A DNA stretch of 64,000 nt from a virus (lineage: Duplodnaviria; Heunggongvirae; Uroviricota; Caudoviricetes): the IMG/VR virus record IMGVR_UViG_3300042922_000906, positions 40,054 through 104,053 of that record; one strand, given 5' to 3'. The first letter of the stretch is position 1. Each line of letters starts with the position of its first letter. The notes under the pieces were generated by a model. It worked only from the letters and a program-made list of their open reading frames with translations, was not told where the DNA came from and searched no databases. Positions 2,048-51,903 of the stretch are shown here, piece after piece. The position numbers were made by a program, and so were the translations under genes.

Positions 2048-2204
2048 TCTATATTACATTAACTAAATAAAATCCAAAATTTGTTATTTAAATGTTAATT
2101 GTTTTATTTCTGCCCTCTCTTATCCAAAATACTAACTATTCAATCCCTATTATATGCTGTACAATAATTTTGTAAACACTAATTTAGAGAGGATTGCAGC
2201 AGAT

Positions 2205-2924
2205 ATGGAAAAAATTAAAGTAATCGTTGCAGATGATAATGAAGTAATTTTAGAAGTCATGAAAGAATTAATTAACGGGCAAACGGATATGGAGGTTATA
2301 GGCGAATATAATAACGGGGAATCGGCTTATGAAGCAATAATAAAAATGCAACCTGATGTTATTATTTTGGATATATTAATGCCTATATGGGATGGATTAG
2401 AAGTATTAAAGCAGCTAAGAAATAATTATAACAAGAAAATTACTAAAATAGTTTTTTCAAGTGAGGCAAAAGAAGTTCAAAGAAAATTGGCAGATGGTGT
2501 TTTAGATGATGTATATTACTTTACAAAACCCTTTAAATTTGAGTTGTTTATTGAAAGAATTAAAATGGCATATTATGAGAGCAGTAAAAAGGATGCTGAA
2601 CATATAATTCATGAGTTTTTAGAAGGACTAGTGTTAACTGAATCAGGAAAGAAATATATATCACAAAGTGTAATGCTTCTGATCAATGATAGAACTTTAT
2701 TAACCAAGGATTTTTGTACAATTATCGCCAACAAGGAAGGGACTACTTGGAACAATATTCAAAGAAAAATAAGATATTCAATAGAACTTGCTTATAAGAG
2801 TTCTGAAAGTAGTAAATTGAATACTGCATTTGGACAATCAACATTAGGAACATTTAAAATGGACTTAAATATCAAAACTATGTTATTACATTTTAGTGAT
2901 AAGGTAAGTAAAATGATGGCCTGA
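2205..2924 (+). CDS. spo0A: Spo0A-like response regulator (receiver domain plus Spo0A_C-like DNA-binding domain)
   Basis: From the ATG at 2205 the N-terminus reads MEKIKVIVADDNEVILEVMKELINGQTDMEVIGEYNNGESAYEAIIKMQPDVIILDILMPIWDGLEVLKQL. This parallels B. subtilis Spo0A MEKIKVCVADDNREL...PDVLVLDIIMPHLDGLAVLERL, including the phospho-acceptor Asp. The C-terminus IIHEFLEG...RKIRYSIELAY...AFGQST resembles the Spo0A_C core (IIHEIGVP...RVERAIRHAIEVAW...LFGYT). Confidence 0.7.
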   Translation: MEKIKVIVADDNEVILEVMKELINGQTDMEVIGEYNNGESAYEAIIKMQPDVIILDILMPIWDGLEVLKQLRNNYNKKITKIVFSSEAKEVQRKLADGVLDDVYYFTKPFKFELFIERIKMAYYESSKKDAEHIIHEFLEGLVLTESGKKYISQSVMLLINDRTLLTKDFCTIIANKEGTTWNNIQRKIRYSIELAYKSSESSKLNTAFGQSTLGTFKMDLNIKTMLLHFSDKVSKMMA

Positions 2925-3395
2925 TGTAGATGGAAGAAACAGTAAAGAAACAATTAAAGTTTTTTAAATTAATTGTTTTAAGCAAAATGCCTATATGTAA
3001 ATGATTGCTTCTGAGTGGATGGTTATACTCAACTGTTTTACCTGTTTCTAACAATTAAGCCCTATTTACAGACAAAAGAAACTGATATACAATTGAAATT
3101 AATAAAGCTTTGAAACATAGTAACGGTACGATTTTGGAAAGATTATACTATAAAAAATTAAAGGAGTGAACTTTTAAATTATACATAAGGAATACAATTG
3201 TTAATCTTAAGAAATCGGGAATAAAACTTCCATTTACACTAATACTATGAAAATATTAACACCCTCAAATTTTATATCTTTACAATAATTTTGTTCGAGT
3301 ATATAATGGAAAAAGAACAAGTGTTCGATTTTATAAATAAGAGGTGAGCGAAAAATGTTATGTAAACTGTGGAAATATTGTAATAGGGGGTTAAA

Positions 3396-3779
3396 ATGGT
3401 TAGAGAGATTACGATGAATGAATTTGAGCAAATTATGAATGCTGCTAATGGAAACTATTTATGCACAACATTTTTCGGGTCGATAGTTGAATCCAAAACT
3501 TATAGAGGGTTTGATTTTCTAAGTGGAAGTAATGGTACTTACCTGTTTAGAGATATACTAGACGATGATTTTGAATTTAATATTGAAAAAATTAAAATAA
3601 TAACTATTGTTCATGATTATGAAAAGGACGAGGAGGAAAATCAAATTTCATTATTGTTTAGAAATGGAGATTCTTTAATAATTAATTTCTATATGAATGA
3701 TATGAATAAATTAATAAATAAGGACAAAAAGAAAGACCGTGTGCTTGTATGCGCAGCAGGTCAATATTCACTCAATTAA
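3396..3779 (+). CDS. hypothetical protein
   Basis: ORF of 127 aa with a GGGGG SD. No motif recognised. Confidence 0.35.
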   Translation: MVREITMNEFEQIMNAANGNYLCTTFFGSIVESKTYRGFDFLSGSNGTYLFRDILDDDFEFNIEKIKIITIVHDYEKDEEENQISLLFRNGDSLIINFYMNDMNKLINKDKKKDRVLVCAAGQYSLN

Positions 3780-7923: not shown

Positions 7924-8229
7924 ATGAACAATAAAGATAGGCGAGTATTTAATGCAATACGTGAGTACACACAAATATTTAAAGCTTTAAATCCTGCTGA
8001 TACTTATGCAAACTCAATTCATCAAGAAGCTAGCCATTATGCACATATGATTATTGAAGATTTGATTAGAAAACATTTAGCTGGACTTGATGTTACTCAA
8101 GAAATTGAATTATTAAAAGGAAACTATGAGAACTTTAGTTTAAAGTCAAAAGAACATAGTTTAAAACAAAAAAATTACAGTGATTTATTAGGCGATTTAA
8201 TGAAAAGCAACAGTGATTTTAAACAGTAA
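7924..8229 (+). CDS. hypothetical protein
   Basis: ORF of 101 aa abutting the previous stop codon. Confidence 0.35.
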   Translation: MNNKDRRVFNAIREYTQIFKALNPADTYANSIHQEASHYAHMIIEDLIRKHLAGLDVTQEIELLKGNYENFSLKSKEHSLKQKNYSDLLGDLMKSNSDFKQ

Positions 8230-8273
8230 AAATAATTCGCATAATGAATATTATCTGAAAGAAGGAACATTTT

Positions 8274-8645
8274 ATGAATAATGACATGGATAGCATATGT
8301 ATTGATATTATTGAGCAATTATTAATATTATTAAAAAATGATCCAGAACATGCATTGATTACTTATGGATTATTATCTGAGAAATTAAGTACTAAAATTA
8401 ATCCTCGTAATTTAGATTATCCTTTGGGTATTGTATCTGATGTATGTAAAGAATTAGGTATGCCATTATTAAGTACTCTTGTTGTTAGTAAGAGCACATA
8501 TATGCCTGGAACTGGGTATTTTAAATACTATTATCCCGATGCTAAAGAAGCTGAATATAATAATATTTTTAAAAGAAATGTAAAAGAGGTAAGAGAATAT
8601 AAACATTGGCATGAATTGGCTGAAGGTATGGGTATAAAAATTTAG
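8274..8645 (+). CDS. hypothetical protein
   Basis: ORF of 123 aa. Confidence 0.35.
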   Translation: MNNDMDSICIDIIEQLLILLKNDPEHALITYGLLSEKLSTKINPRNLDYPLGIVSDVCKELGMPLLSTLVVSKSTYMPGTGYFKYYYPDAKEAEYNNIFKRNVKEVREYKHWHELAEGMGIKI

Positions 8646-8674
8646 TTTTATTGGGTTATAGGAGGTAATATTAA

Positions 8675-8827
8675 ATGGAAGAATTATTAAAAGAATTACA
8701 AGAAAAACTTAATCAAGTAAAATCTACTTCTGCAAATTACTTATCAGATTATGAAGAAGGTTGCAGAGATGCAAGAATTGATATGCTGAAAGAAATTATT
8801 CTACTTGTTGAAAAGAAAATAATTTAG
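8675..8827 (+). CDS. small hypothetical protein (50 aa; not in the track)
   Basis: AGGAGG SD. A TTTAGTTTTATTGGG element lies upstream. Confidence 0.3.
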   Translation: MEELLKELQEKLNQVKSTSANYLSDYEEGCRDARIDMLKEIILLVEKKII

Positions 8828-8855
8828 TTTTATTGGGAAGTGGGAGGAAGAACAT

Positions 8856-9122
8856 ATGCAAGAAATCAAATATACAGAGAGCGAAAAGTTAAAAGCAATA
8901 TCAGAACAATCACAACTATGTGGTGAATTTTTAGAATGGTTGATGTCAAAGTACAATTTAATTGACAGAAATGAGAAATTTGAAACCCCTAGTATTCCAA
9001 TAGGCTTTTCATCATTTGTTAAAATTGATAATCTTTTGGCTGAATTTTTCGATATAGACATGAGTTTAGTGGAAAAGGAAAGAATACAAATGATTGAAGA
9101 AATGAGAAATAGAAATGGTTAA
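8856..9122 (+). CDS. hypothetical protein
   Basis: ORF of 88 aa with a GGGAGGAAG SD. Preceded by the second copy of TTTAGTTTTATTGGG. Confidence 0.35.
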   Translation: MQEIKYTESEKLKAISEQSQLCGEFLEWLMSKYNLIDRNEKFETPSIPIGFSSFVKIDNLLAEFFDIDMSLVEKERIQMIEEMRNRNG

Positions 9123-9297
9123 AATGAGTCAAAAAAGAACCTGTGAGGGATGTAAAGCATTAGACCAAAGGCAATATATAAATGATTGTCTGCTGGGTTA
9201 TAAATTTGATGAACATTTTAAACCACTAGAAATATGTCCGAAACCAAAGACGTATGAACAATATATTGAAAGTAAACAATGGTATGATAATAGATAA
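9115..9297 (+). CDS. Cys-containing hypothetical protein
   Basis: ORF of 60 aa. Confidence 0.3.
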   Translation: MVKMSQKRTCEGCKALDQRQYINDCLLGYKFDEHFKPLEICPKPKTYEQYIESKQWYDNR

Positions 9298-9340
9298 ATA
9301 TAAGCCAATAAATGTCTGATTTTAAAGGGATGAAAGAGTT

Positions 9341-9571
9341 ATGAATTTAATTACTAGACAGCAGGTTCGCAACTATATAAAAAATAAATCAAAAGTATAT
9401 ATTTTAGAGACTGATGAACTATGGAACGCAAGAGATTTTCACTATGCTATAATAGTCATAGGTTCTAAGGGGTTTTGGTTAAATGCATTTAAGAAGTATA
9501 GTATGGCAGTTAAATATTGTACCAAATTAGGACTAAAAATTGTAAACGATGGAGAAAGTAATTCAATTTAA
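9341..9571 (+). CDS. hypothetical protein
   Basis: ORF of 76 aa. Confidence 0.3.
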   Translation: MNLITRQQVRNYIKNKSKVYILETDELWNARDFHYAIIVIGSKGFWLNAFKKYSMAVKYCTKLGLKIVNDGESNSI

Positions 9572-9727
9572 TATTTCGCAGATCAAAATGCTGTGATTTA
9601 TTAAAATTATATTACTTACATAGTTACACTAGTAATTTACTCTGTACTCTGTTATATTTATTATGTAAACTATCCGATCTATGAGGTATATAATATGAGA
9701 ACATTTTTGCTTATTTTTGCTTAAATT

Positions 9728-10102
9728 GTGGGAATTATTTATTATCATCAGATAGTAACATTTTTTTATCGGTTTGGAAAAGAGCAGATTTATTTGTCAG
9801 AGCCAGAAGTAAATTCAATTGATAAAATAGTAAAGAATGATTCGTTAGCTGATATTCTAATTATCATAATGTTTTTAACTGAAGCAGCATTTTATCTTAT
9901 ATCTATGTTTTATTTTAGATATAAAATTAACACTTACATATCTTTATTTCTACTTATAAATTCTTCAATTGGAAATACCAAGTTAATAATTAGTTTAAAA
10001 TATAAAAAATCACTTCACTATTGGTTTTCAACATGGAACAAACTTATTAAAGTTGCGGCATTGGTTTATGTGATCGGTATATGCATATATCTGTTAATTT
10101 AA
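9728..10102 (+). CDS. hypothetical membrane protein
   Basis: Three to four hydrophobic helices. No clear SD. Confidence 0.25.
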   Translation: MGIIYYHQIVTFFYRFGKEQIYLSEPEVNSIDKIVKNDSLADILIIIMFLTEAAFYLISMFYFRYKINTYISLFLLINSSIGNTKLIISLKYKKSLHYWFSTWNKLIKVAALVYVIGICIYLLI

Positions 10103-10145
10103 TAAAAACTTAACTAAAATATTATAAAATAAATTGTAAAAATCT

Positions 10146-10175
10146 ATTGACAGTAAACTGGTAAAAATATATAAT
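10146..10175 (+). promoter_or_regulatory. sigma-A-type promoter (TTGACA, 18 nt spacer, TATAAT) with an upstream TTAACTAAAATATTATAAAATAAAT element
   Basis: Consensus hexamers. The upstream AT element also recurs at 15281 and 16331. Confidence 0.5.
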
Positions 10176-10213
10176 TAATTCAAGGTTGTAGTTGCAGGAA
10201 AATAACCATTGAA

Positions 10214-10435
10214 ATGGAGGTTTTATTGGGTATGGATATCAAAGATGTTTTTATTAGTAAAGCTAGAAAATATAATAATTATCAAGAGACAGTTTGTGTT
10301 AAAGATAGAAAATGTATAAATTGTACCAGATGGAGATTAAGTTTTCCATATACCTGTAATGACTATGATATGTATACAATCAAAGCAGAAACTTGTTTGA
10401 ATTATACAACAGAATCAAGGCCTGAAGTTGATTAA
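10214..10435 (+). CDS. Cys-rich hypothetical protein
   Basis: ORF of 73 aa. An alternative start at 10236 is possible. Confidence 0.3.
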   Translation: MEVLLGMDIKDVFISKARKYNNYQETVCVKDRKCINCTRWRLSFPYTCNDYDMYTIKAETCLNYTTESRPEVD

Positions 10436-10486
10436 GGTAATTAAAATATTCATTTTAAAGGTTAAATAGAAAGGATATGATTATAG

Positions 10487-11023
10487 ATGAAAGCAACTGG
10501 AATAGTTAGACGTATAGACGATTTAGGAAGAGTTGTAATACCTAGAGAAACACGGAGAGCATTAAGAATTAAAGAAGGAGATCCTCTGGAGATTTTTATT
10601 GAAGATGGTGGAGTAATATTAAAAAAATACAGACCATTTCAAGATTTAATGGAATTTTCAGAGAAGTACGCAGAGTCTTTACATAAAACCTCTGGACATA
10701 TTTGTTTCATTACTGATAGAGATACAATAATTTCTGTAAATGGTACATCTAAAAGAGATTTTCTTGAAAAACCTATTAGTGAGAAGTTGGAAAATATTAT
10801 TGATGAAAGACATTTGTTTATCACAAATACCGAACAGATAAATATAGTTAATGGTCAGAGCTTGAATTTTCATTCTATCATAATAAAACCAATTATGTCT
10901 GAAGGTGAAACCTGTGGTTCAGTAATACTTGCAAGTACAGTTAATAATATAGTTTTTGGAGAAGTTGAAATTAAACTTGTTGAAAATGCAGCCGATTTTT
11001 TAGGTAAACAACTAGAAGATTAA
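10487..11023 (+). CDS. spoVT: SpoVT-like regulator (AbrB-type swapped-hairpin N-domain plus GAF-like C-domain)
   Basis: The N-terminus GIVRRIDDLGRVVIPRETRRALRIKEGDPLEIF is the AbrB/SpoVT DNA-binding fold. Total length 178 aa with a C-terminal sensory domain, matching SpoVT architecture. Confidence 0.75.
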   Translation: MKATGIVRRIDDLGRVVIPRETRRALRIKEGDPLEIFIEDGGVILKKYRPFQDLMEFSEKYAESLHKTSGHICFITDRDTIISVNGTSKRDFLEKPISEKLENIIDERHLFITNTEQINIVNGQSLNFHSIIIKPIMSEGETCGSVILASTVNNIVFGEVEIKLVENAADFLGKQLED

Positions 11024-11069
11024 ACACTTAAAATCTCGTTTTTAATGACTAGTAAAGGTAGGTAGCAGA

Positions 11070-11648
11070 ATGTATCAGGCAATGCATGAAATATTAAATG
11101 AAGGTAAAATAGGTAAATATGTACTTCAAAAATTTGAGATTAATGATAGTAATAGATCATTCGGAAACCCTATCCCATATGGTAAATATATTAGACTTCA
11201 TGATGGAATGGACTGTATAATGTCTAATACATATATGGAAGAGAGAACCAACAGAGAATTTGTTTTGAAGGCAAATGGAGATGTTTTTATTGCAGGGTTG
11301 GGTATAGGATTAATAGTATTGCCTGTTCAAGATAAGGTTGAAGTTAAATCTATTACTATTCTTGAAAAGAGTCCTGAAGTAATTGAATTAGTTGGAAATC
11401 AGCTACTTTTAAACAATAAAGTTAAAATTATTCAAGGTGATGTTTTTGAATATGAATTTCCAAAAGGAACAAAATTCGATACAATATATTTTGATATTTG
11501 GAATTATGTGAATTCGGATGTTTATAAAGAAATGAAAGCATTGAAAAATAAATATAGAAAATATCGACTAAGTTCTAAAGAAAATCCTGATGTTTATATG
11601 AAGTGTTGGGCTGAGTATGAAGCAAAAACTGACAGGAGATTATATTGA
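11070..11648 (+). CDS. class I SAM-dependent methyltransferase-like protein
   Basis: A Gly-rich DVFIAGLGIGL motif is followed by an acidic residue (IYFD). Confidence 0.35.
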   Translation: MYQAMHEILNEGKIGKYVLQKFEINDSNRSFGNPIPYGKYIRLHDGMDCIMSNTYMEERTNREFVLKANGDVFIAGLGIGLIVLPVQDKVEVKSITILEKSPEVIELVGNQLLLNNKVKIIQGDVFEYEFPKGTKFDTIYFDIWNYVNSDVYKEMKALKNKYRKYRLSSKENPDVYMKCWAEYEAKTDRRLY

Positions 11649-11669
11649 GAATATATAAGATAGTTTTTA

Positions 11670-11984
11670 TTGGGAGAAAATATGGATATAGGGAACAAAC
11701 TAAAATCACTTAGAGAAAAAATAAATCTGACAACATATGATGTATCAAATGTATCTGGAATTTCACAATCAGTTATAAGTAAAATTGAAAATAATAACAG
11801 AAAGTTAGAAGATATAGAAATACTTGATAAAATATGTAATGCTTTAGGAATCGGACTAATCGAATTTCTTAAAGAAGATGAAACAGACATCAATGTATTA
11901 AGAGTTAATGAAGCTATTAAAGGGTTGAAAGAAGAACATATAGATTTAATAGTTAATATGGCGAATGCATTAAAAAATAAATAA
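11670..11984 (+). CDS. XRE-family helix-turn-helix transcriptional regulator
   Basis: LKSLREKINLTTYDVSNVSGISQSVISKIEN is a classic Cro/C1-type HTH. Confidence 0.7.
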   Translation: MGENMDIGNKLKSLREKINLTTYDVSNVSGISQSVISKIENNNRKLEDIEILDKICNALGIGLIEFLKEDETDINVLRVNEAIKGLKEEHIDLIVNMANALKNK

Positions 11985-12163
11985 ACCAATGAAACAGAAT
12001 TGGGTGATATTGTTGTTAACAAAATAATTTTTAATAGCAATGATAATAAATATAGTTTTGCCTTTCTTGGTAGCGGAATGCCAAAGTTCATAGAATAAAA
12101 TTAGTTTTTGAAGATAAATTAAATTCTTAAACTAAACTAATATAATAGTAGGTGTGAATTAAT

Positions 12164-13063
12164 ATGATATTGAACCAAAATAAACCTTTACCAGAGTTTG
12201 TAATAAATTTCTTAGACTATAAAAAGAATAATGAAAAATTAAGTGACAATACAATAATTGCTTATCAATTAGATATCTATTCTTTTTTAGAGTGGTTGAA
12301 AGAGTATTTCAATACTACTGAAGTATCTTTAAACTTGTTTAACAAATTAACCATTCAAGATGTAGTGAAATGGCAGCGAACACTAAAAAATCAAGCTTCA
12401 ACAGAAGGAAGAAAAATATCTAGCATAAGATTATTGTTTGATTACCTTAATAAATTTAAATTGGTTGATAATGATGTTATGCATAATATTAAGAAGCCTA
12501 AGATACCTAAAAAGCCAAGAAAACACTTGGATTTTGAAACCTCAAAAGAATTGATTCATGTAGCCGAGGTTGAAGGTAGTTTACGAGATGTCGCTATAAT
12601 CAAATTATTTTTGTATAGCGGTATGAGAATAAGCGAAATCACAAATCTTGACTTAGGTGATATAAAAGGTAATAGGGTATATATAAGAGCTGCCAAAGGT
12701 GAAAAAGATAGAATAGTCTATATTGACGAAGATGCAGTTCAGGCAATAAATAATTGGTTGGTAATAAGACCAAAAACAACATGTGATTCAATATTTGTTT
12801 TACATTACTTTAACAAAGAACCATATCGAATTACTGATGCATCAATAAGGAAGATGATTAAGAAATTTGCAGACATAATTGAAGTTGAATTTACTCCTCA
12901 TATCTTAAGACATACTTATGCAACAGATCAATTAGATGCTGGAACACCTTTACCATCAATTCAAAAAGCTTTAGGCCATAGTGATATAAAGACAACTCAA
13001 ATATATGCTCACACAACAGAAAAACAATTAATGCAAATGGCAGGAAAGGTAAAATACAAATAG
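12164..13063 (+). CDS. tyrosine site-specific recombinase / phage integrase (XerC/D-like)
   Basis: N-terminal SAM-like core-binding region. The C-terminal catalytic motifs HILRHTYAT...LGHSDIKTTQIYAH give the R...HxxR...Y tyrosine nucleophile arrangement. Confidence 0.85.
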   Translation: MILNQNKPLPEFVINFLDYKKNNEKLSDNTIIAYQLDIYSFLEWLKEYFNTTEVSLNLFNKLTIQDVVKWQRTLKNQASTEGRKISSIRLLFDYLNKFKLVDNDVMHNIKKPKIPKKPRKHLDFETSKELIHVAEVEGSLRDVAIIKLFLYSGMRISEITNLDLGDIKGNRVYIRAAKGEKDRIVYIDEDAVQAINNWLVIRPKTTCDSIFVLHYFNKEPYRITDASIRKMIKKFADIIEVEFTPHILRHTYATDQLDAGTPLPSIQKALGHSDIKTTQIYAHTTEKQLMQMAGKVKYK

Positions 13064-13121
13064 GCAATAAAATACAAGTTTTAGTGGAATTAATTAGTTT
13101 ATTCGAAAGGATGGTATGAAA

Positions 13122-13295
13122 ATGAAAAGATATTTTCAGATAGAAGGAGAAAGACAAGTTGTAGAATTGGATATATCAGATGGAAGTTTAGCTGCTACAG
13201 CTACACCAGAACAGTTAGGTCAGGCTATGAAAGTAGAACTTAAGGAAATTACAAATAGCCAGTATAGACGTTTGAGTGTTCAATTTGCTCAGTAA
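13122..13295 (+). CDS. small hypothetical protein (57 aa; not in the track)
   Basis: AAAGGATGG SD. The open frame runs MKRYFQIEGERQVVELD... Confidence 0.3.
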   Translation: MKRYFQIEGERQVVELDISDGSLAATATPEQLGQAMKVELKEITNSQYRRLSVQFAQ

Positions 13296-13692
13296 ATATG
13301 TCTTATGCGACGGAAGGGAAGTGTTTATATGATTGAATTTGATACACACATAGAAAAGAAAGACATAATAGAATTGGTAGTTATTGATGATGAGGTTGTT
13401 TTAAGCGCAGAGACCGATGATTAATTGTGCAATTTAAGAATAAGATAAAGGAGGAACAATACAATTGAAAGATTATTTAATCGGTTTTATTTCAGGAATT
13501 TTCCTGACATTTGGAATGCTGCTTTGGCTAGCTCATATAAGAATTTTGGGTATAGTTCTAATTTTTCTAGCATGGTTTTTAAGTGTAGTAGTTTTGGGAC
13601 ATTATAAATACATAAGAAAGGAAAATTAAATGAATTTTATTGACAAATTGGCAAATAAAAGTGCAATTTTAAAGAAAAAAGAATAAAAAATG

Positions 13693-13721
13693 TTGACAAA
13701 TTTTAATTACAATAATATAAT
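13693..13721 (+). promoter_or_regulatory. sigma-A-type promoter (TTGACA, 17 nt spacer, TATAAT)
   Basis: Consensus hexamers with the conserved spacer AATTTTAATTACAATAA. Confidence 0.55.
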
Positions 13722-13744
13722 ATAAAACAGGAGATATCGATTAA

Positions 13745-14248
13745 ATGTACAAATTAATGAAAAAGTTAGCAGGTATAATTGCTGCATACAAAGTAAATCG
13801 CTTAAAGGATTTCTCAACATTAGAAAATGCTTTGTTAAAAAAGAAAAAGAAGCATGTAAAAGTAACTAGAGAAGATGCGTTGTCTGTATATAGTTATATT
13901 TATACTGGATTATTATTAGAATTATTTATTTTATTTGTAATATCTATAATTGCAATTATTCTTAATATAATTATACCAACAATTGCAATACTAATACCTT
14001 TTTTAGTATTTAGGTTTATATTTAAAGGCAATCATTTAAATGGTTATTATAGGTGTTTAATATTTACAACAAGTTATATAATTCTTGCCGCCTTTATTTC
14101 AAGTCTAATAATACCAGCAAGTTTAAATTTATTGTTAAAATTTATTTGTTATGTTAGTATAGGGCTAGGATTAGAGTTGATTTCATTGACGAGCTGGTTT
14201 AATAAAATTTTAGATCAGATAAATAGATTTAATATTAATAAGACATAG
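13745..14248 (+). CDS. AgrB-like polytopic membrane protein (tentative)
   Basis: Four hydrophobic helices. A His-x6-Cys arrangement (KGNHLNGYYRC) follows TM2, as in the AgrB catalytic H77/C84 pair. Confidence 0.3.
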   Translation: MYKLMKKLAGIIAAYKVNRLKDFSTLENALLKKKKKHVKVTREDALSVYSYIYTGLLLELFILFVISIIAIILNIIIPTIAILIPFLVFRFIFKGNHLNGYYRCLIFTTSYIILAAFISSLIIPASLNLLLKFICYVSIGLGLELISLTSWFNKILDQINRFNINKT

Positions 14249-14267
14249 TTATTTGGGGGAAGAATAA

Positions 14268-15050
14268 ATGCAAGAGATATTATTAGATTTACGAGACATG
14301 TTATGCTTTTCTATACCAGAAGCTATTTTTATCACAATTATGACATATATTCTTTTAAAAAAGTATAATATGCTAGATAAGTATAAAATAAAATCAACCT
14401 TAATAAATTTATTATTTCCTGCATTAATTTCATCAATTGTATTAACTCTATTAGGACTTTTAAATATCGGCTTAATGGCAAAGATAATTGGCTTATTGGT
14501 ATTTTATTTAATATTACTATATTTAATCAGTTCAACATCATATCAAAAAATACATTGGTTAGGTTTAAAAGTGTTAATGAGTTTTATCACATCATTTTTT
14601 ATAGCAATGATGATTGAATATCTAAGTCTGCTTTTATTAATGACTCTTATAAAGATCGACCCGACGAAACTAATGATGAATGATGAGATGTTTTATACTA
14701 AGCTAACAACATCTTTAGTTTGGATAGTTATAGAAATATGTTTAATTTTCATTCTTTATTTTAAAAAGGATAATAAAATAAGCTATTTATTAAACATTGT
14801 ATTTAAAAACAAGAAGTTATTGTATTTTGGAATAGTTTTAATAACGATTAATATTTTGTTAATTCTTGAATTTATTAAATTAACTCTATATAACAATATA
14901 TTTGTAAATACAAGTATTAATGAACAAATTTGTGTAACATTAGGTATTGTATTAGTTCTACCATTATTGACTGTGCTTTTAATGAATTTTGTAGTATCTG
15001 CTTTAATTAAGCAACAAAATTACTATGAACAGTTATATCATTTAAAATGA
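14268..15050 (+). CDS. polytopic membrane protein (6-7 TM), possibly an AgrC-type sensor module lacking a kinase domain
   Basis: 260 aa, almost entirely hydrophobic helices. No H-box or ATP-binding motifs are present. Confidence 0.35.
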   Translation: MQEILLDLRDMLCFSIPEAIFITIMTYILLKKYNMLDKYKIKSTLINLLFPALISSIVLTLLGLLNIGLMAKIIGLLVFYLILLYLISSTSYQKIHWLGLKVLMSFITSFFIAMMIEYLSLLLLMTLIKIDPTKLMMNDEMFYTKLTTSLVWIVIEICLIFILYFKKDNKISYLLNIVFKNKKLLYFGIVLITINILLILEFIKLTLYNNIFVNTSINEQICVTLGIVLVLPLLTVLLMNFVVSALIKQQNYYEQLYHLK

Positions 15051-15265: not shown

Positions 15266-15304
15266 ATGAGAATCATAATTTAACTAAAATATTATAAAAT
15301 AAAT

Positions 15305-15397: not shown

Positions 15398-16300
15398 ATG
15401 AAAACTTTTTATGACAAATTTAAATCATACAATAAACCGATCTACGAAAATAAAAATTGGATTGATATGAAAGAAGTATCCAGACTAGTTAATTTAGCCA
15501 AAGGTAATCGAAATACTTCTCAATTTCTAACAGATATGAATTTGACATGTGAAACAGAACAAATTATTGATATGATAAATGGCCGGTATAATTCTTGTAT
15601 AAGACTACATCACTTGAAAAAGATTGCAAAAGCATCTGAAGGAAGAGTGGATTTTGATCAGCTAAATGCTATATTTAAATTTATGGAAAATAATTCTTTG
15701 GATGAATTAAAGAATATTAATATCGAGCGTAGTGATATTTGTCAAGTTAATCTTGGCGAAGCGCTTGACAATGAGCATGGTGGCATAAAGATGTGCGTGG
15801 TTATTTCAAATAATAAAGGAAATGGTTCAAGTGCAACTTTTCAATTAATCCCTTTGTCTTCATCTATCGGGAAAAATTACATTCCTTCACATGTGCCTGT
15901 GGGTTTGGAATCAGGAATATTAAAACCTTCTGTAGCAATGATTGAACAACTTAGAGTTAAAACAAAGGCAAGTCTTTTATTTGATGGTGAGATAATTAAA
16001 GTCGGAAAAGTATCTGAAGCAACCATGATAAAAATAGAATCAGCGATTAAAAAGCAGTTTGGTATGATTAGTCTTAATTTTAATCCAAGATTTGCGGAAG
16101 AAATGGTAAGAGCAATATTAGGAGTTATGAATGTAGTTGAAGATGATGATAATCTTGTTATAGCTAAAAACCTCTTATGGAAAGATCTTGAAGCTTATTG
16201 TGCAGATTATGATAAGGATGCCAAATCAATTTTTAATGAGTTTACAACTAAAATTGCGCGCGGTGAACCTGTTTTTAAGAGATTCTGTCTTGTCGGCTGA
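15398..16300 (+). CDS. MazF/PemK-fold endoribonuclease-domain protein with N- and C-terminal extensions
   Basis: The central region GDICQVNLGEALDNEHGGIKMCVVISNN...FQLIPLSSS...PSHVPV parallels the MazF core (GDIvlvdF.P..GsEq.g.RPavVls...vvPiTs). Confidence 0.5.
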   Translation: MKTFYDKFKSYNKPIYENKNWIDMKEVSRLVNLAKGNRNTSQFLTDMNLTCETEQIIDMINGRYNSCIRLHHLKKIAKASEGRVDFDQLNAIFKFMENNSLDELKNINIERSDICQVNLGEALDNEHGGIKMCVVISNNKGNGSSATFQLIPLSSSIGKNYIPSHVPVGLESGILKPSVAMIEQLRVKTKASLLFDGEIIKVGKVSEATMIKIESAIKKQFGMISLNFNPRFAEEMVRAILGVMNVVEDDDNLVIAKNLLWKDLEAYCADYDKDAKSIFNEFTTKIARGEPVFKRFCLVG

Positions 16301-16438: not shown

Positions 16439-17764
16439 ATGAAAGCTAACAAAGAAGAACTTATAAATGTATTATATCCTGCAATAGAACGGTCAAGAAG
16501 AAACAATGAAGTAAAAGATGTAAATTATTTAAAAGATAAATTAGCAGAACATAATATAGGAATTGGAAAGGTTCAGGGTATTTATGACACAAATATTCCT
16601 TTAGAAACATTATCTAATGCCGACTTATACTTGTTTACTAAATATTTGTTTGAAACAACTAAAAATGAAACAATTAACATTACAAATTGGTTTTATGATG
16701 AAGAAATAAAAACTCATGATCAACATACTGAAGATGTATTTTATAAAGATAACAAGATTATTTTATATGATGTAAGTCAAACTTCGGAGTATGAATATTT
16801 AGTATCGAAAATGACTTATGTTGAAATGAGTAATATTATTAATCAGAAATTATTAACATATAATTATCGTACTCAGAGAGAAGCAAGAATAGTTTATTTT
16901 GGAAATGAATTTATTAAAAGACCTGAAGTAAAGTCAAATAAGATTATGGACATGTTTGAGATGATGAAAACAGGTTTTGAAGCCAATTTGATATCTCTTA
17001 ACATTCGTAAAATTGGGACAGAAAAATTTGTATATGATGAAAAGAAGCGAATTTTGATTATCGAAGTTGATAATGATAATACTTTTTTGGACATAATTGA
17101 TGGTTTTCATAGGTGGCTTGCAGCAACAGCTTGCATAATGAACAATCCAAGTAATCAAGGATATTTTCATGCTAAAATATATAATATGACAGAAAGTAAA
17201 GCACAAAGCTATTTAGCAAGAGAAGAGAAAGCATCACCAATGAATTTATCTCATGTTGCAGGTTATGATAATAGAGATGCTTATGTAACATTTACCAAAG
17301 ATATTAATTCTTATGGTGAGAATAGAAAAAGTAATGAATTATTTGGTATGATAGCGCTTGATGATATTGAGTATTTGTCACAGAATAAATATACTACTGT
17401 TGAGGTGTTTTCAAAAGGATTGAAGCATAATTTTAAATTTAAAGATATGAATGCCAGAGAATTAGGAAAGTTACAAGATTTTTTTGTTAAATATTTTAAT
17501 GAATTATTAGGTATTTTACAGGAGAAGTATTCAGGTGAAAATAGCGTTATCTTTGAAAAGAAAATTTTTATCGGTTATATCGCTTTGGGCAGCAAATTAA
17601 TAAACAAGAATGATTGGAAATTATTATTAGAGCAGGCGCTTTCTTCGATAGATTTTTCAAGATCGAGTGATTGGGAAAATATAGGTTTATTCAAAGATGA
17701 TGTTAATAATAGTAATGTGAAACTGATAAGTAATTATTTTAAGAAAGAAGTTGGTGTGGATTAA
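16439..17764 (+). CDS. ParB/Srx-fold (DGQHR / DUF262-like) domain protein
   Basis: TQREARIV (GERRxRA-like) followed by LDIIDGFHRWLAA (a DGxHR box). Length 441 aa. Confidence 0.4.
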   Translation: MKANKEELINVLYPAIERSRRNNEVKDVNYLKDKLAEHNIGIGKVQGIYDTNIPLETLSNADLYLFTKYLFETTKNETINITNWFYDEEIKTHDQHTEDVFYKDNKIILYDVSQTSEYEYLVSKMTYVEMSNIINQKLLTYNYRTQREARIVYFGNEFIKRPEVKSNKIMDMFEMMKTGFEANLISLNIRKIGTEKFVYDEKKRILIIEVDNDNTFLDIIDGFHRWLAATACIMNNPSNQGYFHAKIYNMTESKAQSYLAREEKASPMNLSHVAGYDNRDAYVTFTKDINSYGENRKSNELFGMIALDDIEYLSQNKYTTVEVFSKGLKHNFKFKDMNARELGKLQDFFVKYFNELLGILQEKYSGENSVIFEKKIFIGYIALGSKLINKNDWKLLLEQALSSIDFSRSSDWENIGLFKDDVNNSNVKLISNYFKKEVGVD

Positions 17765-18699
17765 TGTATAATAAAGAGATTAAGGAAAAGTTTATTAATG
17801 AACACTATAACACCGAAGAAAGTAAAAAAGTAGTTGAGTGTGCTTTTAATAATTATAGTAAAATTGAAGAACAATATGATACTGATCTATATCATTTCAA
17901 TTTTTATCAAAGAAATGAATTGCTTATGAATCTATCTTCGTCTAGTATAAAGGCAATAAGAAAAGATTATAATTATATTCAAAGTTATGTACGGTGGGCA
18001 GAAAATAGGGGAATGTGTCCTCTTAATATGGCTTTTATAGATTTGTCAACTAATGAATTAAAACAATTTGTTTCAAATGCAAAGAAAGATCAATTTATTA
18101 AAAACAGAGAAGAATTATATAATAATTTTTTACCTAAGATACATAATGTAATAGACAAGGCCATGATAATATTAATATATGAGGGTGTGCTAGGTAAGGA
18201 AGCTGTTGATCTAGTTAATTTTACTAAAGAGAATATAGAATTTGATAAACAACGATTTATATTTAATACGAAAAAGGGAACAAGAATTATTCCTAACATT
18301 GATCAGCAATCAATAGATATACTAAAAAAATCAATTAGTGAGACAATTTACGAACTAGACAATGGTAATTCTAATGCTAAAGCACCAACTAGAAATTTAG
18401 CTAATTCAGATTATATTGTAAGACCAATTATTGGTTTTGAAGATAAAATTAATAGAATGGGTGTTATAACTAAGTTTTCAAAAATAAAGATTTGGACTGA
18501 AAAACGGTATATAAAACCAAAAAGTATTCATTATTCAGGGATGTTTGATAAGTTAAGAAATATTGAAATTAGTGAAAAAAGAGATTTAGTTACTTATGAT
18601 TATGAAGATGTTTTAACATTATATGGATATAATGCAAAGCAATCAGCACATTTAAAATTGGATTATGAATATTTTTGTGAGATGTTTTACGGAGAATAA
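17764..18699 (+). CDS. hypothetical protein translationally coupled to the ParB-like gene (TAATG overlap)
   Basis: ORF of 311 aa whose start overlaps the upstream stop. Confidence 0.4.
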   Translation: MYNKEIKEKFINEHYNTEESKKVVECAFNNYSKIEEQYDTDLYHFNFYQRNELLMNLSSSSIKAIRKDYNYIQSYVRWAENRGMCPLNMAFIDLSTNELKQFVSNAKKDQFIKNREELYNNFLPKIHNVIDKAMIILIYEGVLGKEAVDLVNFTKENIEFDKQRFIFNTKKGTRIIPNIDQQSIDILKKSISETIYELDNGNSNAKAPTRNLANSDYIVRPIIGFEDKINRMGVITKFSKIKIWTEKRYIKPKSIHYSGMFDKLRNIEISEKRDLVTYDYEDVLTLYGYNAKQSAHLKLDYEYFCEMFYGE

Positions 18700-21927: not shown

Positions 21928-22377
21928 ATGATGGATAAATTAACAAAATCACTTAAATGTTCTTTCTGTGGTAAATCTCAAAACCAAGTTAAGAGATTGA
22001 TTGCGGGGCCGGGTATTTATATATGTGATGAATGTGTAGATTTGTGTTCAGAAATTATTGAAGAAGAATCTGATATAAAAGTAGATGATTTACTTGATGA
22101 TGTACCGACTCCAAGCATAATTAAAAAATATCTTGATCAGCATGTTATAGGACAAGAAGAAGCTAAAAAATCATTAAGTGTAGCTGTTTATAATCACTAC
22201 AAAAGAATAAATTCTTTAAAGAAAAAGAAAAAATCAGATGATGTAGAAATTCAGAAAAGCAATATACTCATGATCGGTACTACGGGTATAGGAAAAACTG
22301 AATTGGCTAGAACAATAGCGAAAATGCTAAAACTTCCCTTTGCTATTGCTGATGCCACTACGTTAACGGAAGCAGGG
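21928..22377 (+). CDS. clpX: ClpX ATP-dependent protease ATPase subunit, exon 1 (zinc-binding domain plus Walker A)
   Basis: Zinc-binding domain [30 protein letters not shown] and Walker [17 protein letters not shown]. The frame ends ...[10 protein letters not shown] followed by TA, at the intron boundary. Confidence 0.8.
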
Positions 22378-23549
22378 TAAAGGTTTTAAAAAATATTTCA
22401 TATTTTATTCGCATTATTCAAAATTAAGGACGGTAAAGATATATAAGTGATATTGTAAACTATAATTCAGCTATGGAAGATTATATAAATAAACATTTGT
22501 CATTAAGCAAGTTAGCAGAAATTTATAAAATCTCTAGATATAAGCTAACAAAATTATTAAATAAGAATGGTATCAAGATTAGGAATCATAATATTGTTGA
22601 TGTGAACTATAAGGTTGATAATTGCTACTTTGATAAAATTAATACCGAATCAAAAGCGTATTGGCTTGGATTTATTTATGCAGATGGATGTATTAATACG
22701 AGTGGGAATAGTTTAAGATTTTCAATTGAATTAGCCGATTACGATTTTAACCATTTAAAAAAATTTAGAAAAGCAATTAAATCTAATCATCCAATTACTG
22801 AAAGACAAAATAGCAAAAGAAATACATGCAATATTTCAATTAATAGTCGAAACATTGTAAATAAACTAATAGACATTGGATGTGTTACAAATAAAACATA
22901 TAATGGATTTATAGACCCAAACATTTTAAAAACAACAGAAATGAAAATTGCTTTTATTAGAGGTTATTTAGATGGAAATGGTTATATTGACAAGGGTGAC
23001 AAGTATAGAATTGTATTCACATTACAATCAGAAAAATTGGTTGAAGATTTAAATATAATGATAAGAGAGTTAAAAATACATACAAGAATACAAAAAGATC
23101 AAGAATATTTTAGAATACATATTGAAAGAAAAAATGATTTTTATCAACTATTAAATCTAATATATAAAAATGCGAGTATATATTTAGATAGAAAATATGA
23201 AATATTTTTAAGAAGAACAATGCCGTTTGGTCAAGAAACTGACCAAATAATTAGTGCGAAATTAAGCTGGGAAGTCCTTCCAAACATGTACGAACATAAA
23301 GGTAATGTTTTAGGATAATCAGAACCGAAGGCTAATTTTAAAAGATTAGTCAGGGGCAGAGCATAGAGATTGAAATTATATATTCCATTAATATATAAAA
23401 TATAATATCTCCACGAGGTCGCACTACCTAACCTTATATTATAAAAATTTATGGAATTTGATGATTAATATAAGTATGGTAAAAAGATATGCCGAACAAG
23501 TTTGTAATGAACTTGAGGTAAAGATAAAAAGCTTTACGATAACAAATTG
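22378..23549 (+). mobile_element. group I intron interrupting clpX (approx. 1172 nt; 5' exon ends in U, intron ends in G)
   Basis: Joining 22377 to 23550 gives ...[41 protein letters not shown], matching the ClpX consensus across the junction. The insert carries a free-standing LAGLIDADG ORF and about 230 nt of 3' structured sequence. Confidence 0.6.
22473..23318 (+). CDS. LAGLIDADG homing endonuclease (double-motif, intron-encoded)
   Basis: Two dodecapeptide motifs are present: WLGFIYADGCI and IRGYLDGNGYI. Length 281 aa. Confidence 0.75.
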   Translation: MEDYINKHLSLSKLAEIYKISRYKLTKLLNKNGIKIRNHNIVDVNYKVDNCYFDKINTESKAYWLGFIYADGCINTSGNSLRFSIELADYDFNHLKKFRKAIKSNHPITERQNSKRNTCNISINSRNIVNKLIDIGCVTNKTYNGFIDPNILKTTEMKIAFIRGYLDGNGYIDKGDKYRIVFTLQSEKLVEDLNIMIRELKIHTRIQKDQEYFRIHIERKNDFYQLLNLIYKNASIYLDRKYEIFLRRTMPFGQETDQIISAKLSWEVLPNMYEHKGNVLG

Positions 23550-24352
23550 ATGTCGGAGATGACGTAGAAAACATATTGTTAAAACTTCTGCAAGCAGCGG
23601 ACTTTGATGAAGAGCTAGCACAGAAAGGGATTATCTATATTGATGAAATTGATAAAATTGCACGAAAAGGTGAAAATACATCAATTACAAGAGATGTTAA
23701 TGGTGAGGGAGTACAACATGCGTTATTAAAAATACTTGAAGGTACAGTAGCAAGAGTTCCACCACAGGGAGGACGTAAACACCCTCATCAGGAGTGTATT
23801 GAAATAGATACAAGTAATATTCTGTTTATTTGCGGTGGTGCATTTGATGGTATTGATAAGATACTTTCTCAAAAAAATAAGACTGAAAAGAGTATAGGGT
23901 TTGGTGCTTCAGTAAGCAGTAAAATAGAAAACAATAATACAAATTTATTAGAAACAATTGAACCTCATGATTTTGTGAAGTATGGTTTAGTGCCAGAATT
24001 AGTTGGAAGATTACCTGTGATAACTACACTGCAACCATTAGATAAAAATGCGTTATTAAGAATATTAACTGAACCTAAAAATGCAATAGTTAAGCAATAT
24101 CAGAAATTGCTTAATATTGACAATGTTAACCTCGAATTTGAAAATGATGCACTGGAGGAAATTGTTAATAAAGCAATTGAAAGAAAGACTGGTGCTAGAG
24201 GTTTAAGAGGAATACTGGAAAGTGTTATGAAGAATGTTATGTTTGAAATCCCCGATATAAAAAATGCAAAGAAAGTTGTTATTACAAAAGGTGTTGTATT
24301 AGGGCTAGAAAATTCAGTTATTTATGATAGTAAGAATAAAGTTATTGCATAG
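23550..24352 (+). CDS. clpX: ClpX ATPase, exon 2 (Walker B / sensor / C-terminal domain)
   Basis: [10 protein letters not shown] (Walker B), [11 protein letters not shown] and [11 protein letters not shown] all match ClpX. The exon starts at the A of the codon TAT. Confidence 0.8.
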
Positions 24353-24365
24353 AAAGGATAAAAAT

Positions 24366-24917
24366 ATGAAATCAGCTATATCTATTAATCAAAGTGATAA
24401 ACATGCAATCAAAACTTTAAGCGACCACCTTTATGACCTGATTATCAATTTGGATAAAAAGTTTAATAAAATCATATTTGTTTGTATCGGTACAGATCGA
24501 AGTACAGGCGATTCGCTTGCTCCAATAGTAGGTAGTAAAATACATAAGAAATACAATGTTTATGGAACTCTTGAAAATCCAGATCATGCAAAAAATCTAG
24601 AAGAAACTATGAATATGATTGATACTAAAAACAATCTCATTATTGCAATTGATGCCTGTTTAGGTAAGTCGGAGAATGTTGGTAATATTAATATTCATAA
24701 CGGTTCGCTAAAGCCTGGTTCTGCTGTTGGCAAAGATTTAATGGCGGTTGGTGATATTAGTATATCTGGAATAGTTAATTTCAGCGGCTTTATGGACTTC
24801 CTTATACTACAAAATACTAGATTAAGCATTGTAATGAATTTGAGTAATATTATATCAAAAGTTATTTGTAAAACTATGAAGCAAGTAAATAAGGAAAATA
24901 TAAAAAAGAGTGCTTAA
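24366..24917 (+). CDS. yyaC: YyaC-family sporulation protein (GPR-like protease fold)
   Basis: IIFVCIGTDRSTGDSLAPIVG...GTLENPDHAKN...IIAIDACLGK...GSLKPGSAVGKDL...ISISGIVNFSGFMDFLILQNTRLSIVMN aligns along its whole length with B. subtilis YyaC. The start is set at the ATG behind an AAAGGA SD. Confidence 0.8.
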   Translation: MKSAISINQSDKHAIKTLSDHLYDLIINLDKKFNKIIFVCIGTDRSTGDSLAPIVGSKIHKKYNVYGTLENPDHAKNLEETMNMIDTKNNLIIAIDACLGKSENVGNINIHNGSLKPGSAVGKDLMAVGDISISGIVNFSGFMDFLILQNTRLSIVMNLSNIISKVICKTMKQVNKENIKKSA

Positions 24918-32476: not shown

Positions 32477-32704
32477 AATAATATAGTATATCGTTTGTAG
32501 GTAACGTATAACCTTCAATCCATAAGGATGTAACAAAATGGCTAATGTGCATGACTTTGACTCATGAAATAGAGTTTCGATTACTCTCATCCTTGCCAAT
32601 AACATCGTGTAATTGCTGTTGTGCTTTGTTATTCATGTGTACCCTCCTTTTTTTGAAAGCGTTTGTAGGTATCGCTTGAGAAATCAGAATAACCTTCAGA
32701 TATA

Positions 32705-32780
32705 TTGCGGATTAGCCAAGTAGGTAAGGCAGTAGATTTTGATTCTATCATACTCAGGTTCAAGTCCTGAATCCGTAGCC
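32705..32780 (+). tRNA. tRNA-Gln (anticodon UUG), CCA encoded
   Basis: Hand-folded cloverleaf. Acceptor stem TGCGGAT/ATCCGTA with a U1:A72 pair and G73, as in bacterial tRNA-Gln. U8 is present. The D-arm has GG in its loop. Anticodon stem GTAGA/TCTAT with loop TTTTGAT (U33, UUG, A37). T-arm TCAGG-TTCAAGT-CCTGA. The 3' CCA lies at 32778-32780. Confidence 0.8.
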
Positions 32781-33156
32781 AATTAATTTAATAAAGGTGA
32801 CTGAAAGTTTAGGGTTAAGGCTTAGACAAAACCAATAAACGATGATGAGTAACGAGGGTGACAGCTTATATGTCTTGAATATACCTAAAGTGGGTATCTA
32901 GGAAGATTAGTTGAAATGATACATACTACTTCCAAAAACTATAATAATTTGACGTGATACTGTGTCTAGGATATTTTGAATATTACTAGAATCGTGAAAA
33001 TTGGAGTTACTAATTAAGTCGGCCGAAGTAGTCAATATAAGTGAACGTGCTATATAAGCTAAATGGTTCTACCTGTATTAAATTAAATACCATAAAATGG
33101 ACATTTTAATGTGTGATTAAATAAAATATTATACATAAGGAAGGAAATAGAAAAAA

Positions 33157-48609: not shown

Positions 48610-48636
48610 TGATTTTATGTGACGAAGGGAGAAAAT

Positions 48637-51572: not shown

Positions 51573-51866
51573 ATGAAAAAGGCATTGTATTACAAAGAAT
51601 ATTATTCACCTGTAGCCTATGGATATAAACCAGATCATAAAGTTAAATCATATTTTAAGTTTATAATGGTTTTTGACCTTAAAGAAGGATTAAGATTTAC
51701 AGCATGTGTTCCTAATTTTTCATATTGTTGTAGAAATCCTATTAGAACGGTACTAAGAGTATTGGAACATGAAAGCATAGGTATGGCTAAATATAATAAA
51801 ATAAAAGAAGATACAAGGGCTTGTGGTTTATATAAGAAATTGGATTGCAAGCCAATCAAACTTTGA
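51573..51866 (+). CDS. Cys-rich hypothetical protein
   Basis: ORF of 97 aa with a GGAGTAG SD. Confidence 0.35.
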   Translation: MKKALYYKEYYSPVAYGYKPDHKVKSYFKFIMVFDLKEGLRFTACVPNFSYCCRNPIRTVLRVLEHESIGMAKYNKIKEDTRACGLYKKLDCKPIKL

Positions 51867-51903
51867 TACAAAAATAAAGATTATAGTACATAAGGAAATT
51901 AAT

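Follow-up and report, generated by a model that had tools for sequence, protein, structure and literature searches.

We describe here a gene for a SpoVT-like protein in a 64,000-nucleotide (nt) stretch of viral DNA (IMG/VR record IMGVR_UViG_3300042922_000906, positions 40,054 to 104,053; hereafter the window). The gene is an exact open reading frame (ORF), running from ATG to stop at 10487-11023, and its product of 178 amino acids (aa) starts with MKATGIVRR, the N-terminus of the family. An earlier note on this DNA, made from the letters alone, had described an AbrB-type N-terminus followed by a sensory domain and had named the protein a phage-encoded SpoVT homolog; the peptide that it quoted, VIPRETRRALRIKEGDPLEIF, corresponds to residues 18-38, and the C-terminal domain comes to about 125 aa. 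Upstream of the gene lie a 25-nt repeat and a perfect σA/σ70-type promoter, and genes for a Spo0A-like response regulator and a YyaC-like spore protease homologue are found elsewhere in the window (Table 1). Two antisense ORFs (61 and 64 aa) inside the gene represent the usual noise in 29%-GC DNA.

Domain architecture and predicted fold

Both domains of the protein score above their Pfam cutoffs, which gives it the architecture of SpoVT and not that of plain AbrB, as the earlier note had argued. The N-terminal domain matches MazE_antitoxin/AbrB (PF04014; E=6.3e-15, residues 7-52) and TIGR01439 (42.9 bits against a cutoff of 28.3), and its matches among solved structures include the SpoVT N-domain 2RO5 (E=8e-21), AbrB 1Z0R (E=9e-15) and the N-domains of Abh. 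The arginines that are invariant in the family (R8, R9, R15 and R23) are all kept, as is R24. What follows is not the short multimerization domain that completes AbrB (about 94 aa with its N-domain); residues 53-177 are SpoVT_C/GAF, matching SpoVT_C (PF15714; E=2.1e-39, 134.9 bits against a cutoff of 27.5) with the entire profile covered, and 2W1R, the C-domain of SpoVT, at E=6e-23. Over its length the protein matches the NCBIfam model TIGR02851 (spore_V_T) at E=1.5e-68, and its best match of solved structure is full-length Bacillus subtilis SpoVT (2W1T; E=4.2e-51, residues 1-177), a resemblance that, on these sequence comparisons, cannot be chance.

An AlphaFold2 model built from a 55-sequence alignment (mean predicted local distance difference test score 88.1, predicted template modelling (TM) score 0.79) is consistent with this assignment. 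Searched against the PDB with Foldseek, the model matches 2w1t_A with a query-normalized TM-score of 0.88 and a root-mean-square deviation of 2.1 Å over 179 columns, and its C-terminal domain matches 2w1r (target-normalized TM-score 0.91) and then the GAF domains of CodY; CodY, fRMsr, phytochrome and other GAF domains are matched with probability 1.0 and a TM-score of about 0.5. The model thus predicts that the C-terminal domain is a GAF fold, in agreement with the earlier note, which had called for such a structure comparison and would have been contradicted by a C-terminal domain of another fold; the PDB code it gave for SpoVT, 3FWH, is absent from the matches, and the solved SpoVT structures we find are 2W1T, 2W1R and 2RO5. 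The general Pfam GAF models stay below threshold on this domain (PF01590, 17.6 bits against 22.4; PF13185, 13.7 bits against 28.6), as is expected since SpoVT_C is a divergent GAF subfamily. The SpoVT GAF domain has been described as CodY-like (PMC5061766), and the N-terminal GAF domain of CodY is the next-best structural match after SpoVT, although the two share 14-20% identity, CodY has a different DNA-binding domain, and the CodY ligands (branched-chain amino acids and GTP) are not known to bind SpoVT. No full-length structural match to the protein was found in BFVD.

Phage context, clade and promoter

The window has a GC content of 28.7%, and almost all of its ORFs are small and lie unidirectionally on the + strand. 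Eleven of them are colinear with Clostridium phage c-st, in a lysogeny module (PemK/MazF-like, YopQ and YopR (MrpR)) and a replication module (HD, YorF, AAA-ATPase, DnaB, primase and exonuclease); the DnaB-like helicase shares 58% identity with DnaB of c-st, and a 681-aa protein shares 69% with proteins from large Bacillus phages. PHROG families are matched over essentially their full length by 8 of the 10 window proteins tested, and by the SpoVT-like and Spo0A-like proteins over part of the length only. The phage origin claimed for this DNA is borne out by the colinearity with c-st/SPβ and by the strong PHROG matches. Phage c-st is a bona fide plasmid-prophage, and from the relationship to it and the 28.7% GC we infer that the host is a low-GC Clostridium-type spore former. 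Two further samples, a JGI metagenome and an SRA run, contain the window segment at 99.99-100% nucleotide identity. A megablast search with positions 8000-14000 found no match in INPHARED, so the phage has no close cultured relative there, and no match to an exact 50-mer of the SpoVT-like gene was found in IMG/VR. Homologues of SpoVT, Spo0A and YyaC are absent from the first 100 kb of c-st; such genes are therefore not general to c-st-like phages.

We compared the flanks of the gene with those of 80 chromosomal spoVT loci. The flanks in the window, and likewise those of SpoVT genes on the contigs L003, L005, L007, L008 and L010, match nothing but SpoVT itself, and the viral loci L006, L009 and L169 have one flanking ORF each with some chromosomal-locus matches; control loci from Clostridium and Paenibacillus share at least 10 flanking ORFs. 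The window ORF at 329-784, which is similar to the gene beside SpoVT in L006, has no counterpart in chromosomal spoVT loci and was discarded as a SpoVT-linked gene.

In a search of 5.8 billion proteins the exact sequence was found in metagenomes only. Its nearest relatives in that search (57-63% identical, 177-182 aa) are also metagenome-only, and bacterial SpoVTs, mostly of 184 aa, are 54-61% identical to it. In a sample of one genome per species, no bacterial genome carries a SpoVT more than 55% identical, which argues that the capture was not recent. Neighbor joining places the window protein in a clade of 10 metagenomic sequences (the others being P0002-P0008, P0010 and P0042) with a bootstrap of 100/100; the clade has a hairpin loop one residue shorter and the motifs SKRD and GSVIL. 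Against the TIGR02851 equivalog cutoff of 235.9 bits the window protein scores 230.2 and the eight clade relatives tested score 213.5-235.4, all below it, whereas 10 of 10 control SpoVTs from chromosomes or metagenome-assembled genomes pass at 246.5-302.5 bits. The designation as a SpoVT homolog thus stands for architecture and fold, with the reservation that the whole clade lies just under the equivalog level. Because the clade is separate, scores below the cutoff and lacks the chromosomal neighborhood, the sequence comparisons indicate that the protein is a diverged xenologue of SpoVT architecture, not an orthologue of host spoVT. Bacterial SpoVTs have 77 positions with a conservation of 90% or more, and it keeps 65 of them. 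The dN/dS ratios among the three clade genes for which DNA is available are 0.12-0.24, rough values since dS is saturated, and purifying selection on the gene is evident from them.

The clade members on contigs long enough to judge are those of the window, L003 and L005, and all lie in phage-like gene arrays. L003 (105 kb; ERZ9284047 NODE_18) is a related phage with PemK-YopQ-MrpR, an ATP-dependent DNA ligase and HNH endonucleases, in which at most 2 kb separate the clade SpoVT from the MrpR module, and on L005 (23.5 kb) the clade SpoVT stands among small ORFs in a phage-like array. SpoVT is the best-conserved protein common to the window and L003 (60% identity, against 26-47% for the others). 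L003 also encodes, at 15729-15983, a homologue of the mother-cell regulator SpoIIID, as well as a PARP-domain protein and an IS605/TnpB element. A conserved partner gene was considered and rejected, the Cys-rich ORF upstream and the gene downstream not being kept beside SpoVT in L003 or L005. No clade relative was found on PLSDB plasmids, whose full-length SpoVTs are all bacterial-type, with identities of up to 51%, and are accompanied by short AbrB-like proteins; the matches listed from a metagenome scan with the clade alignment were all bacterial-type SpoVTs (45-57% identity), without any new member of the clade.

Like the window protein, with its 178 aa, the SpoVT proteins of B. subtilis (2W1T, 2W1R, 2RO5) and of clostridia (e.g. 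CD630_34990 of Clostridioides difficile) join an AbrB hairpin to SpoVT_C, and identity to them is about 50% over the full length, with an almost identical N-domain. Unlike them, the window copy is phage-encoded and has the shorter loop and 12 changes at near-invariant positions. Other viral copies are known that resemble it in being full-length, with both the AbrB N-domain and SpoVT_C above Pfam cutoffs: IMG/VR holds at least five (L006-L010) and INPHARED nine, the latter on unverified gut contigs (GenBank 'Bacteriophage sp.', e.g. MT837014). These share with the window copy a non-chromosomal context, but they are just 35-47% identical to it and fall outside its clade, and they are probably independent acquisitions. 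No cultured phage in INPHARED has a full-length SpoVT, apart from a very diverged protein of Moorella phage MTATph1, a cultured 177-kb phage of a spore-former host; this protein (CDS0113; 2983-3477 of L168; 164 aa), annotated 'antitoxin', matches 80 of 80 bacterial SpoVTs by BLASTP with SpoVT_C at 19.9 bits, below cutoff, and may be a very diverged SpoVT-like protein. More common are short AbrB-type proteins of Bacillus, Paenibacillus and Listeria phages (phrog_4681; 'antitoxin' or 'transition state regulator AbrB'), whose N-terminal 50 residues are 60-82% identical to the window protein but which, at 77-150 aa, lack SpoVT_C. The IMG/VR sequences L011-L047 form a graded MKATGIVRR... series, from AbrB-like proteins of 77-103 aa through intermediates of 120-153 aa with no or partial SpoVT_C to complete SpoVTs of 178-181 aa.

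The promoter that heads the unit of the SpoVT-like gene lies 340 nt upstream of it, with 38 nt between the promoter and a 73-aa Cys-rich ORF. Perfect TTGACA-N17-TATAAT sequences occur seven times in the window against 0.07 expected, a number reached in 0 of 100 shuffles; counting one site with an 18-nt spacer there are eight such sites, at 10147, 13693, 15306, 19737, 29094 (on the - strand), 31158, 46078 and 55457. An extended spacer/-10 motif, AACTACAATAATATAATATAA, is common to several of them and suggests distinct promoter classes. No terminator-like site was found on the + strand between 9000 and 13200. The Cys-rich ORF, which has no Pfam match, is separated from the SpoVT-like gene by 51 nt, and a gap of 46 nt without a terminator leads to the weakly methyltransferase-like gene, which is probably co-transcribed with it; the gene order indicates a unit that would comprise the 73-aa ORF, the SpoVT-like gene and the weakly methyltransferase-like gene, likely the XRE-family helix-turn-helix (HTH) gene, and possibly the XerC/D-like recombinase gene.

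Chromosomal spoVT genes differ in this respect. From their upstream regions we derived a forespore-type pattern, G[ACT]AT[AG]-N17/18-[AC]ATN[ACT]TA, which was searched for within 250 nt upstream and used in place of a strict σG expression (GHATR-N17/18-CATNHTA) that proved too insensitive, finding 8 of 76 bacterial loci. The derived pattern, which tests sequence and not expression, is present at 44 of 76 chromosomal spoVT genes against a background of 0.025 per 250 nt, and at none of the seven distinct viral or phage-like full-length copies, that of the window included. We read this as promoter rewiring: by the pattern of its upstream sequence, the phage copy is one in which the forespore promoter has been exchanged for a phage σA-type promoter.

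The repeat that precedes the promoter has a second copy, identical at 25 of 25 positions, at 15280-15304, where it immediately precedes the promoter of the PemK-YopQ-MrpR module. Allowing up to 3 mismatches there are four copies in the window (10110-10134, 15280-15304, 31168 and 55431) against 0.01 expected, and related copies at 13701, 16325, 18714, 19745, 21890, 38501, 38936 and 55514, among which are copies that run into the spacer and -10 region of further perfect promoters. Lysogeny of SPβ is maintained by MrpR, a repressor that binds to copies of a repeat named SPBRE at about ten promoter regions (PMC10516654). By analogy, the 25-nt repeat is a candidate operator of the MrpR-like protein encoded at 17764-18699, and the phage master repressor may count the SpoVT-like operon among its targets.

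As the earlier note stated, homologues of Spo0A and YyaC are also encoded in the window. The Spo0A-like protein is far below equivalog level on TIGR02875 (110 bits against a cutoff of 200), and the YyaC-like protein passes TIGR02841 (182.9 bits against 84.9). A Pfam survey of the other 78 window ORFs found no further sporulation families, so that the 'toolkit' for manipulating sporulation proposed in that note amounts to three genes, with a purpose that we infer. The YyaC-like gene overlaps the end of the ORF for the C-terminal part of ClpX, and 114 nt upstream of it, at 24210-24239, is one of five matches to the forespore-type pattern on the + strand of the window.

Table 1. Position and basis of the features at the SpoVT-like locus and of the companion genes
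Feature	Position	Strand	Basis or remark
Spo0A-like response regulator (REC + Spo0A_C)	2154..2924	+	Response_reg E=2e-19, Spo0A_C E=3e-9
25-nt promoter-associated repeat TTAACTAAAATATTATAAAATAAAT	10110..10134	+	13 nt upstream of the -35 box; candidate operator
Perfect σA/σ70-type promoter TTGACA-N17-TATAAT	10147..10175	+	12/12 positions; heads the unit of the SpoVT-like gene
Small Cys-rich ORF	10214..10435	+	73 aa as listed; real start possibly 10226 or 10232; first gene of unit
SpoVT-like coding sequence	10487..11023	+	ATG-to-stop ORF, 178 aa plus stop codon
AbrB-type swapped-hairpin DNA-binding domain, aa 1-52	10487..10642	+	Pfam, TIGR01439 and PDB matches
SpoVT_C (GAF-like) domain, aa 53-177	10643..11017	+	Pfam, 2W1R, Foldseek
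Weakly methyltransferase-like gene, 192 aa	11070..11648	+	Sub-threshold Pfam methyltransferase matches
XRE-family HTH regulator, 104 aa	11670..11984	+	Pfam HTH_3 E=1e-9; probably in the unit of the SpoVT-like gene
XerC/D-like tyrosine recombinase, 299 aa	12164..13063	+	Phage_integrase E=6e-33 + Phage_int_SAM_1; last large gene before the promoter at 13693
YyaC-like spore protease homologue	24324..24917	+	DUF1256 E=4e-55; phrog_8268 'spore protease'

Possible roles of the phage SpoVT

Bacterial SpoVT acts in the forespore under σG, activating some σG-dependent genes and repressing others in feed-forward loops with σG, and works as a dimer of dimers (a tetramer) whose GAF ligand is not known (PMC5061766, PMC11237016); in C. 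difficile it is made under σF and σG (PMC5061766, PMC11237016). The reading that we prefer, and to which we would give a probability of roughly one half, is that the window encodes a functional, diverged SpoVT xenologue on a temperate c-st/SPβ-like phage, produced at times set by the phage, that would mis-time or override the host's control of sporulation. The phage protein would assemble as a dimer of dimers and bind sites of the SpoVT/AbrB type. Its gene would be transcribed by the host's housekeeping RNA polymerase (RNAP) under phage control, and not by way of σG in the forespore, and because of this predicted mode of transcription the protein would be found ahead of, or apart from, the normal σG period. 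Host genes that respond to SpoVT might then be repressed or activated too early, or the protein might act in the manner of AbrB on vegetative promoters; the feed-forward timing of σG and SpoVT would be broken, and sporulation, spore quality or germination might be bent to the benefit of the phage, with the phage SpoVT acting alongside the Spo0A-like regulator and the YyaC-like protease.

Several points weigh against this reading. SpoVT-dependent activation needs σG-RNAP, so that in vegetative cells, before σG is there, the phage SpoVT could act only as a repressor. Four of the 12 near-invariant positions that are changed lie in the region of the DNA-binding helix (K20R, I22T, T25A and R29K), and because of these changes the specificity for targets may differ from that of host SpoVT. 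In addition, SpoVT is without a defined binding consensus (PMC5061766), and host targets are therefore not predictable. The promoter at 10147 is a consensus match only, which would not fix whether transcription takes place in the lysogen, early in the lytic cycle or in both. The window holds no virion genes, so the identification as phage rests on the modules shared with c-st/SPβ. Lastly, the location of the gene among regulatory and maintenance genes of the phage (HTH, recombinase and lysogeny module) would fit a phage-internal regulator equally well.

It is possible, although we hold it doubtful, that the SpoVT fold serves such an internal role, controlling phage promoters (for instance in temporal class switching, or in silencing of the prophage in spores) and not host sporulation genes, with the GAF domain sensing a physiological signal of the host such as entry into sporulation or germination. 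The XRE HTH gene, the tyrosine recombinase gene, an AgrB gene and then PemK-YopQ-MrpR all lie within 7 kb; the proximity of SpoVT to the MrpR module in L003, the phage-specific repeat at the promoter of the SpoVT-like unit and the departures from the bacterial consensus in the DNA-binding helix point the same way, and short AbrB-type regulators are common in phages. A whole SpoVT_C and about 60% identity to bacterial SpoVTs nevertheless exceed what a generic AbrB-type regulator would need, most phage relatives having 77-150 aa and no SpoVT_C, and the presence of Spo0A-like and YyaC-like genes here, and of SpoIIID in L003, points to the sporulation program of the host.

An extension of our preferred reading, which we regard as unlikely, is that a lineage of c-st/SPβ-like temperate phages domesticated a full SpoVT, placed it behind a repressor-controlled σA promoter and coordinates it with the Spo0A-like and YyaC-like proteins in a takeover of sporulation from initiation to forespore maturation. 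Such a takeover might force or abort sporulation on infection, or might tune germination so as to release an entrapped phage genome at outgrowth, and the GAF domain would read a small-molecule signal of the host or the phage. The Spo0A-like protein of the window has a receiver domain, whereas the phage spo0A genes catalogued by Schwartz et al. are truncated to the effector domain (PMC10294663).

We consider it improbable that the protein is a dominant-negative decoy, co-assembling with host SpoVT or AbrB-family proteins through its swapped-hairpin N-domain or its GAF dimer interface to give inactive or mis-targeted oligomers. The near identity of the N-domain to host SpoVTs (MKATGIVRRIDDLGRVVIP..GDPLEIF), the tetrameric state of SpoVT (PMC5061766, PMC11237016) and the clustering of the clade changes at otherwise invariant positions (K90R, D141E and the A145S-type 'GSVIL') would suit a decoy. 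Against it, nothing in the sequence sets a poison subunit apart from an active homologue, and a pure decoy would not need the invariant N-domain arginines, all of which are kept.

Very improbable, in our view, is an ordinary host gene in a chromosomal or otherwise non-phage window, or a recently captured passenger without a selected role. SpoVT is universal in spore formers, and the lack of virion genes would agree with a host locus. The neighbors of chromosomal spoVT are all absent, however, and with the c-st/SPβ colinearity, the PHROG matches and the unidirectional small ORFs this speaks against host DNA; a bacterial-chromosome origin we reject on the neighborhood test. Against a passenger stand the lack of any sampled bacterial genome above 55% identity, the low dN/dS, the conservation of the clade and the recurrence of the segment at 99.99% nucleotide identity or more in two other samples.

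Least credible is a MazE/AbrB-fold antitoxin of a toxin-antitoxin pair, as might be read from the name of PF04014, the PHROG labels (phrog_4681 and phrog_36746, 'antitoxin from a toxin-antitoxin system'), the annotation in MTATph1 and the PemK/MazF-domain protein at 15398-16300: we reject it because the PHROG matches span residues 1-57 only and the other 125 residues are a complete SpoVT_C/GAF domain, the adjoining genes (10214-10435 and 11070-11648) have no toxin domain, and the PemK gene is separate, at a distance of 4.4 kb and with a perfect promoter of its own, in a conserved PemK-YopQ-MrpR module that c-st has without any SpoVT. In phage annotation, two distinct kinds of protein thus go under short 'AbrB/antitoxin' labels.

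Spore formation offers a refuge from phages and, at the same time, a vehicle for them. To our knowledge, phage manipulation of sporulation is largely unexplained beyond phage sigma factors, and we know of no functional study of a phage-owned full-length SpoVT. With the window gene, the predicted uncoupling of a late-forespore regulator from the timing of σG can be put to the test in a concrete case. Phage c-st, a relative of the window phage, is toxin-converting; given this property, and since SpoVT and σG control the expression of a toxin regulator in C. difficile forespores (PMC11237016), phage copies of SpoVT could affect the spore properties and virulence traits of clostridia. Phage-carried spoVT is already catalogued: Schwartz et al. 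2023 (mBio, PMC10294663) list phage-carried spo0A, spoIIID, spoVT (K04769), abrB and sigF/sigG-like sigma factors, in a survey based on KEGG Orthology whose main text is silent on whether spoVT is full length and gives no further analysis, and a 2025 review repeats the spoVT listing as 'not validated'. Like those entries, the window carries a homologue of a sporulation regulator on a phage of an inferred spore former, and the JGI label on its SpoVT-like protein is likewise K04769; what we add is a distinct clade on phage-like contigs and the evidence for promoter rewiring.

Other genes of the window

A gene for ClpX is apparently split, perhaps by a mobile intron or a similar insertion, with a zinc-finger/N-terminal ORF and an AAA/C-terminal ORF around an ORF for a LAGLIDADG endonuclease (21928-22380, 22473-23318 and 23576-24352). 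Near the start of the window a member of the 8xMP octameric membrane protein family adjoins a ThsB-like TIR-domain protein of Thoeris type (839-1318 and 1336-1746), and a forespore-type sequence, GAATA-N17-AATACTA, is found at 3219-3247, upstream of an unassigned ORF at 3396-3779, with a σA-type site matching at 11 of 12 positions nearby at 3279. The AgrB-like gene (13745-14248) stands behind its own perfect promoter and is followed by a 260-aa multi-pass membrane protein without a Pfam match (14268-15050); this region, 13745-15050, could be an Agr-type peptide-signalling module on a phage. Two tandem tRNA-Gln(UUG) genes are present at 32524-32598 and 32706-32781. Three paralogous ORFs in the replication region, at 34443-35093, 51823-52446 and 58071-58763, resemble by eye homing endonucleases of the HNH/AP2 type, and one of them breaks the c-st-like order of YorF and AAA ATPase. 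A protein with a phosphoribosyltransferase domain (48619-49419) adjoins a nicotinamide phosphoribosyltransferase (NAPRTase + NAMPT_N; 49441-50925), and genes of this kind, for salvage of nicotinamide adenine dinucleotide (NAD), are used by phages against NAD-depleting defenses.

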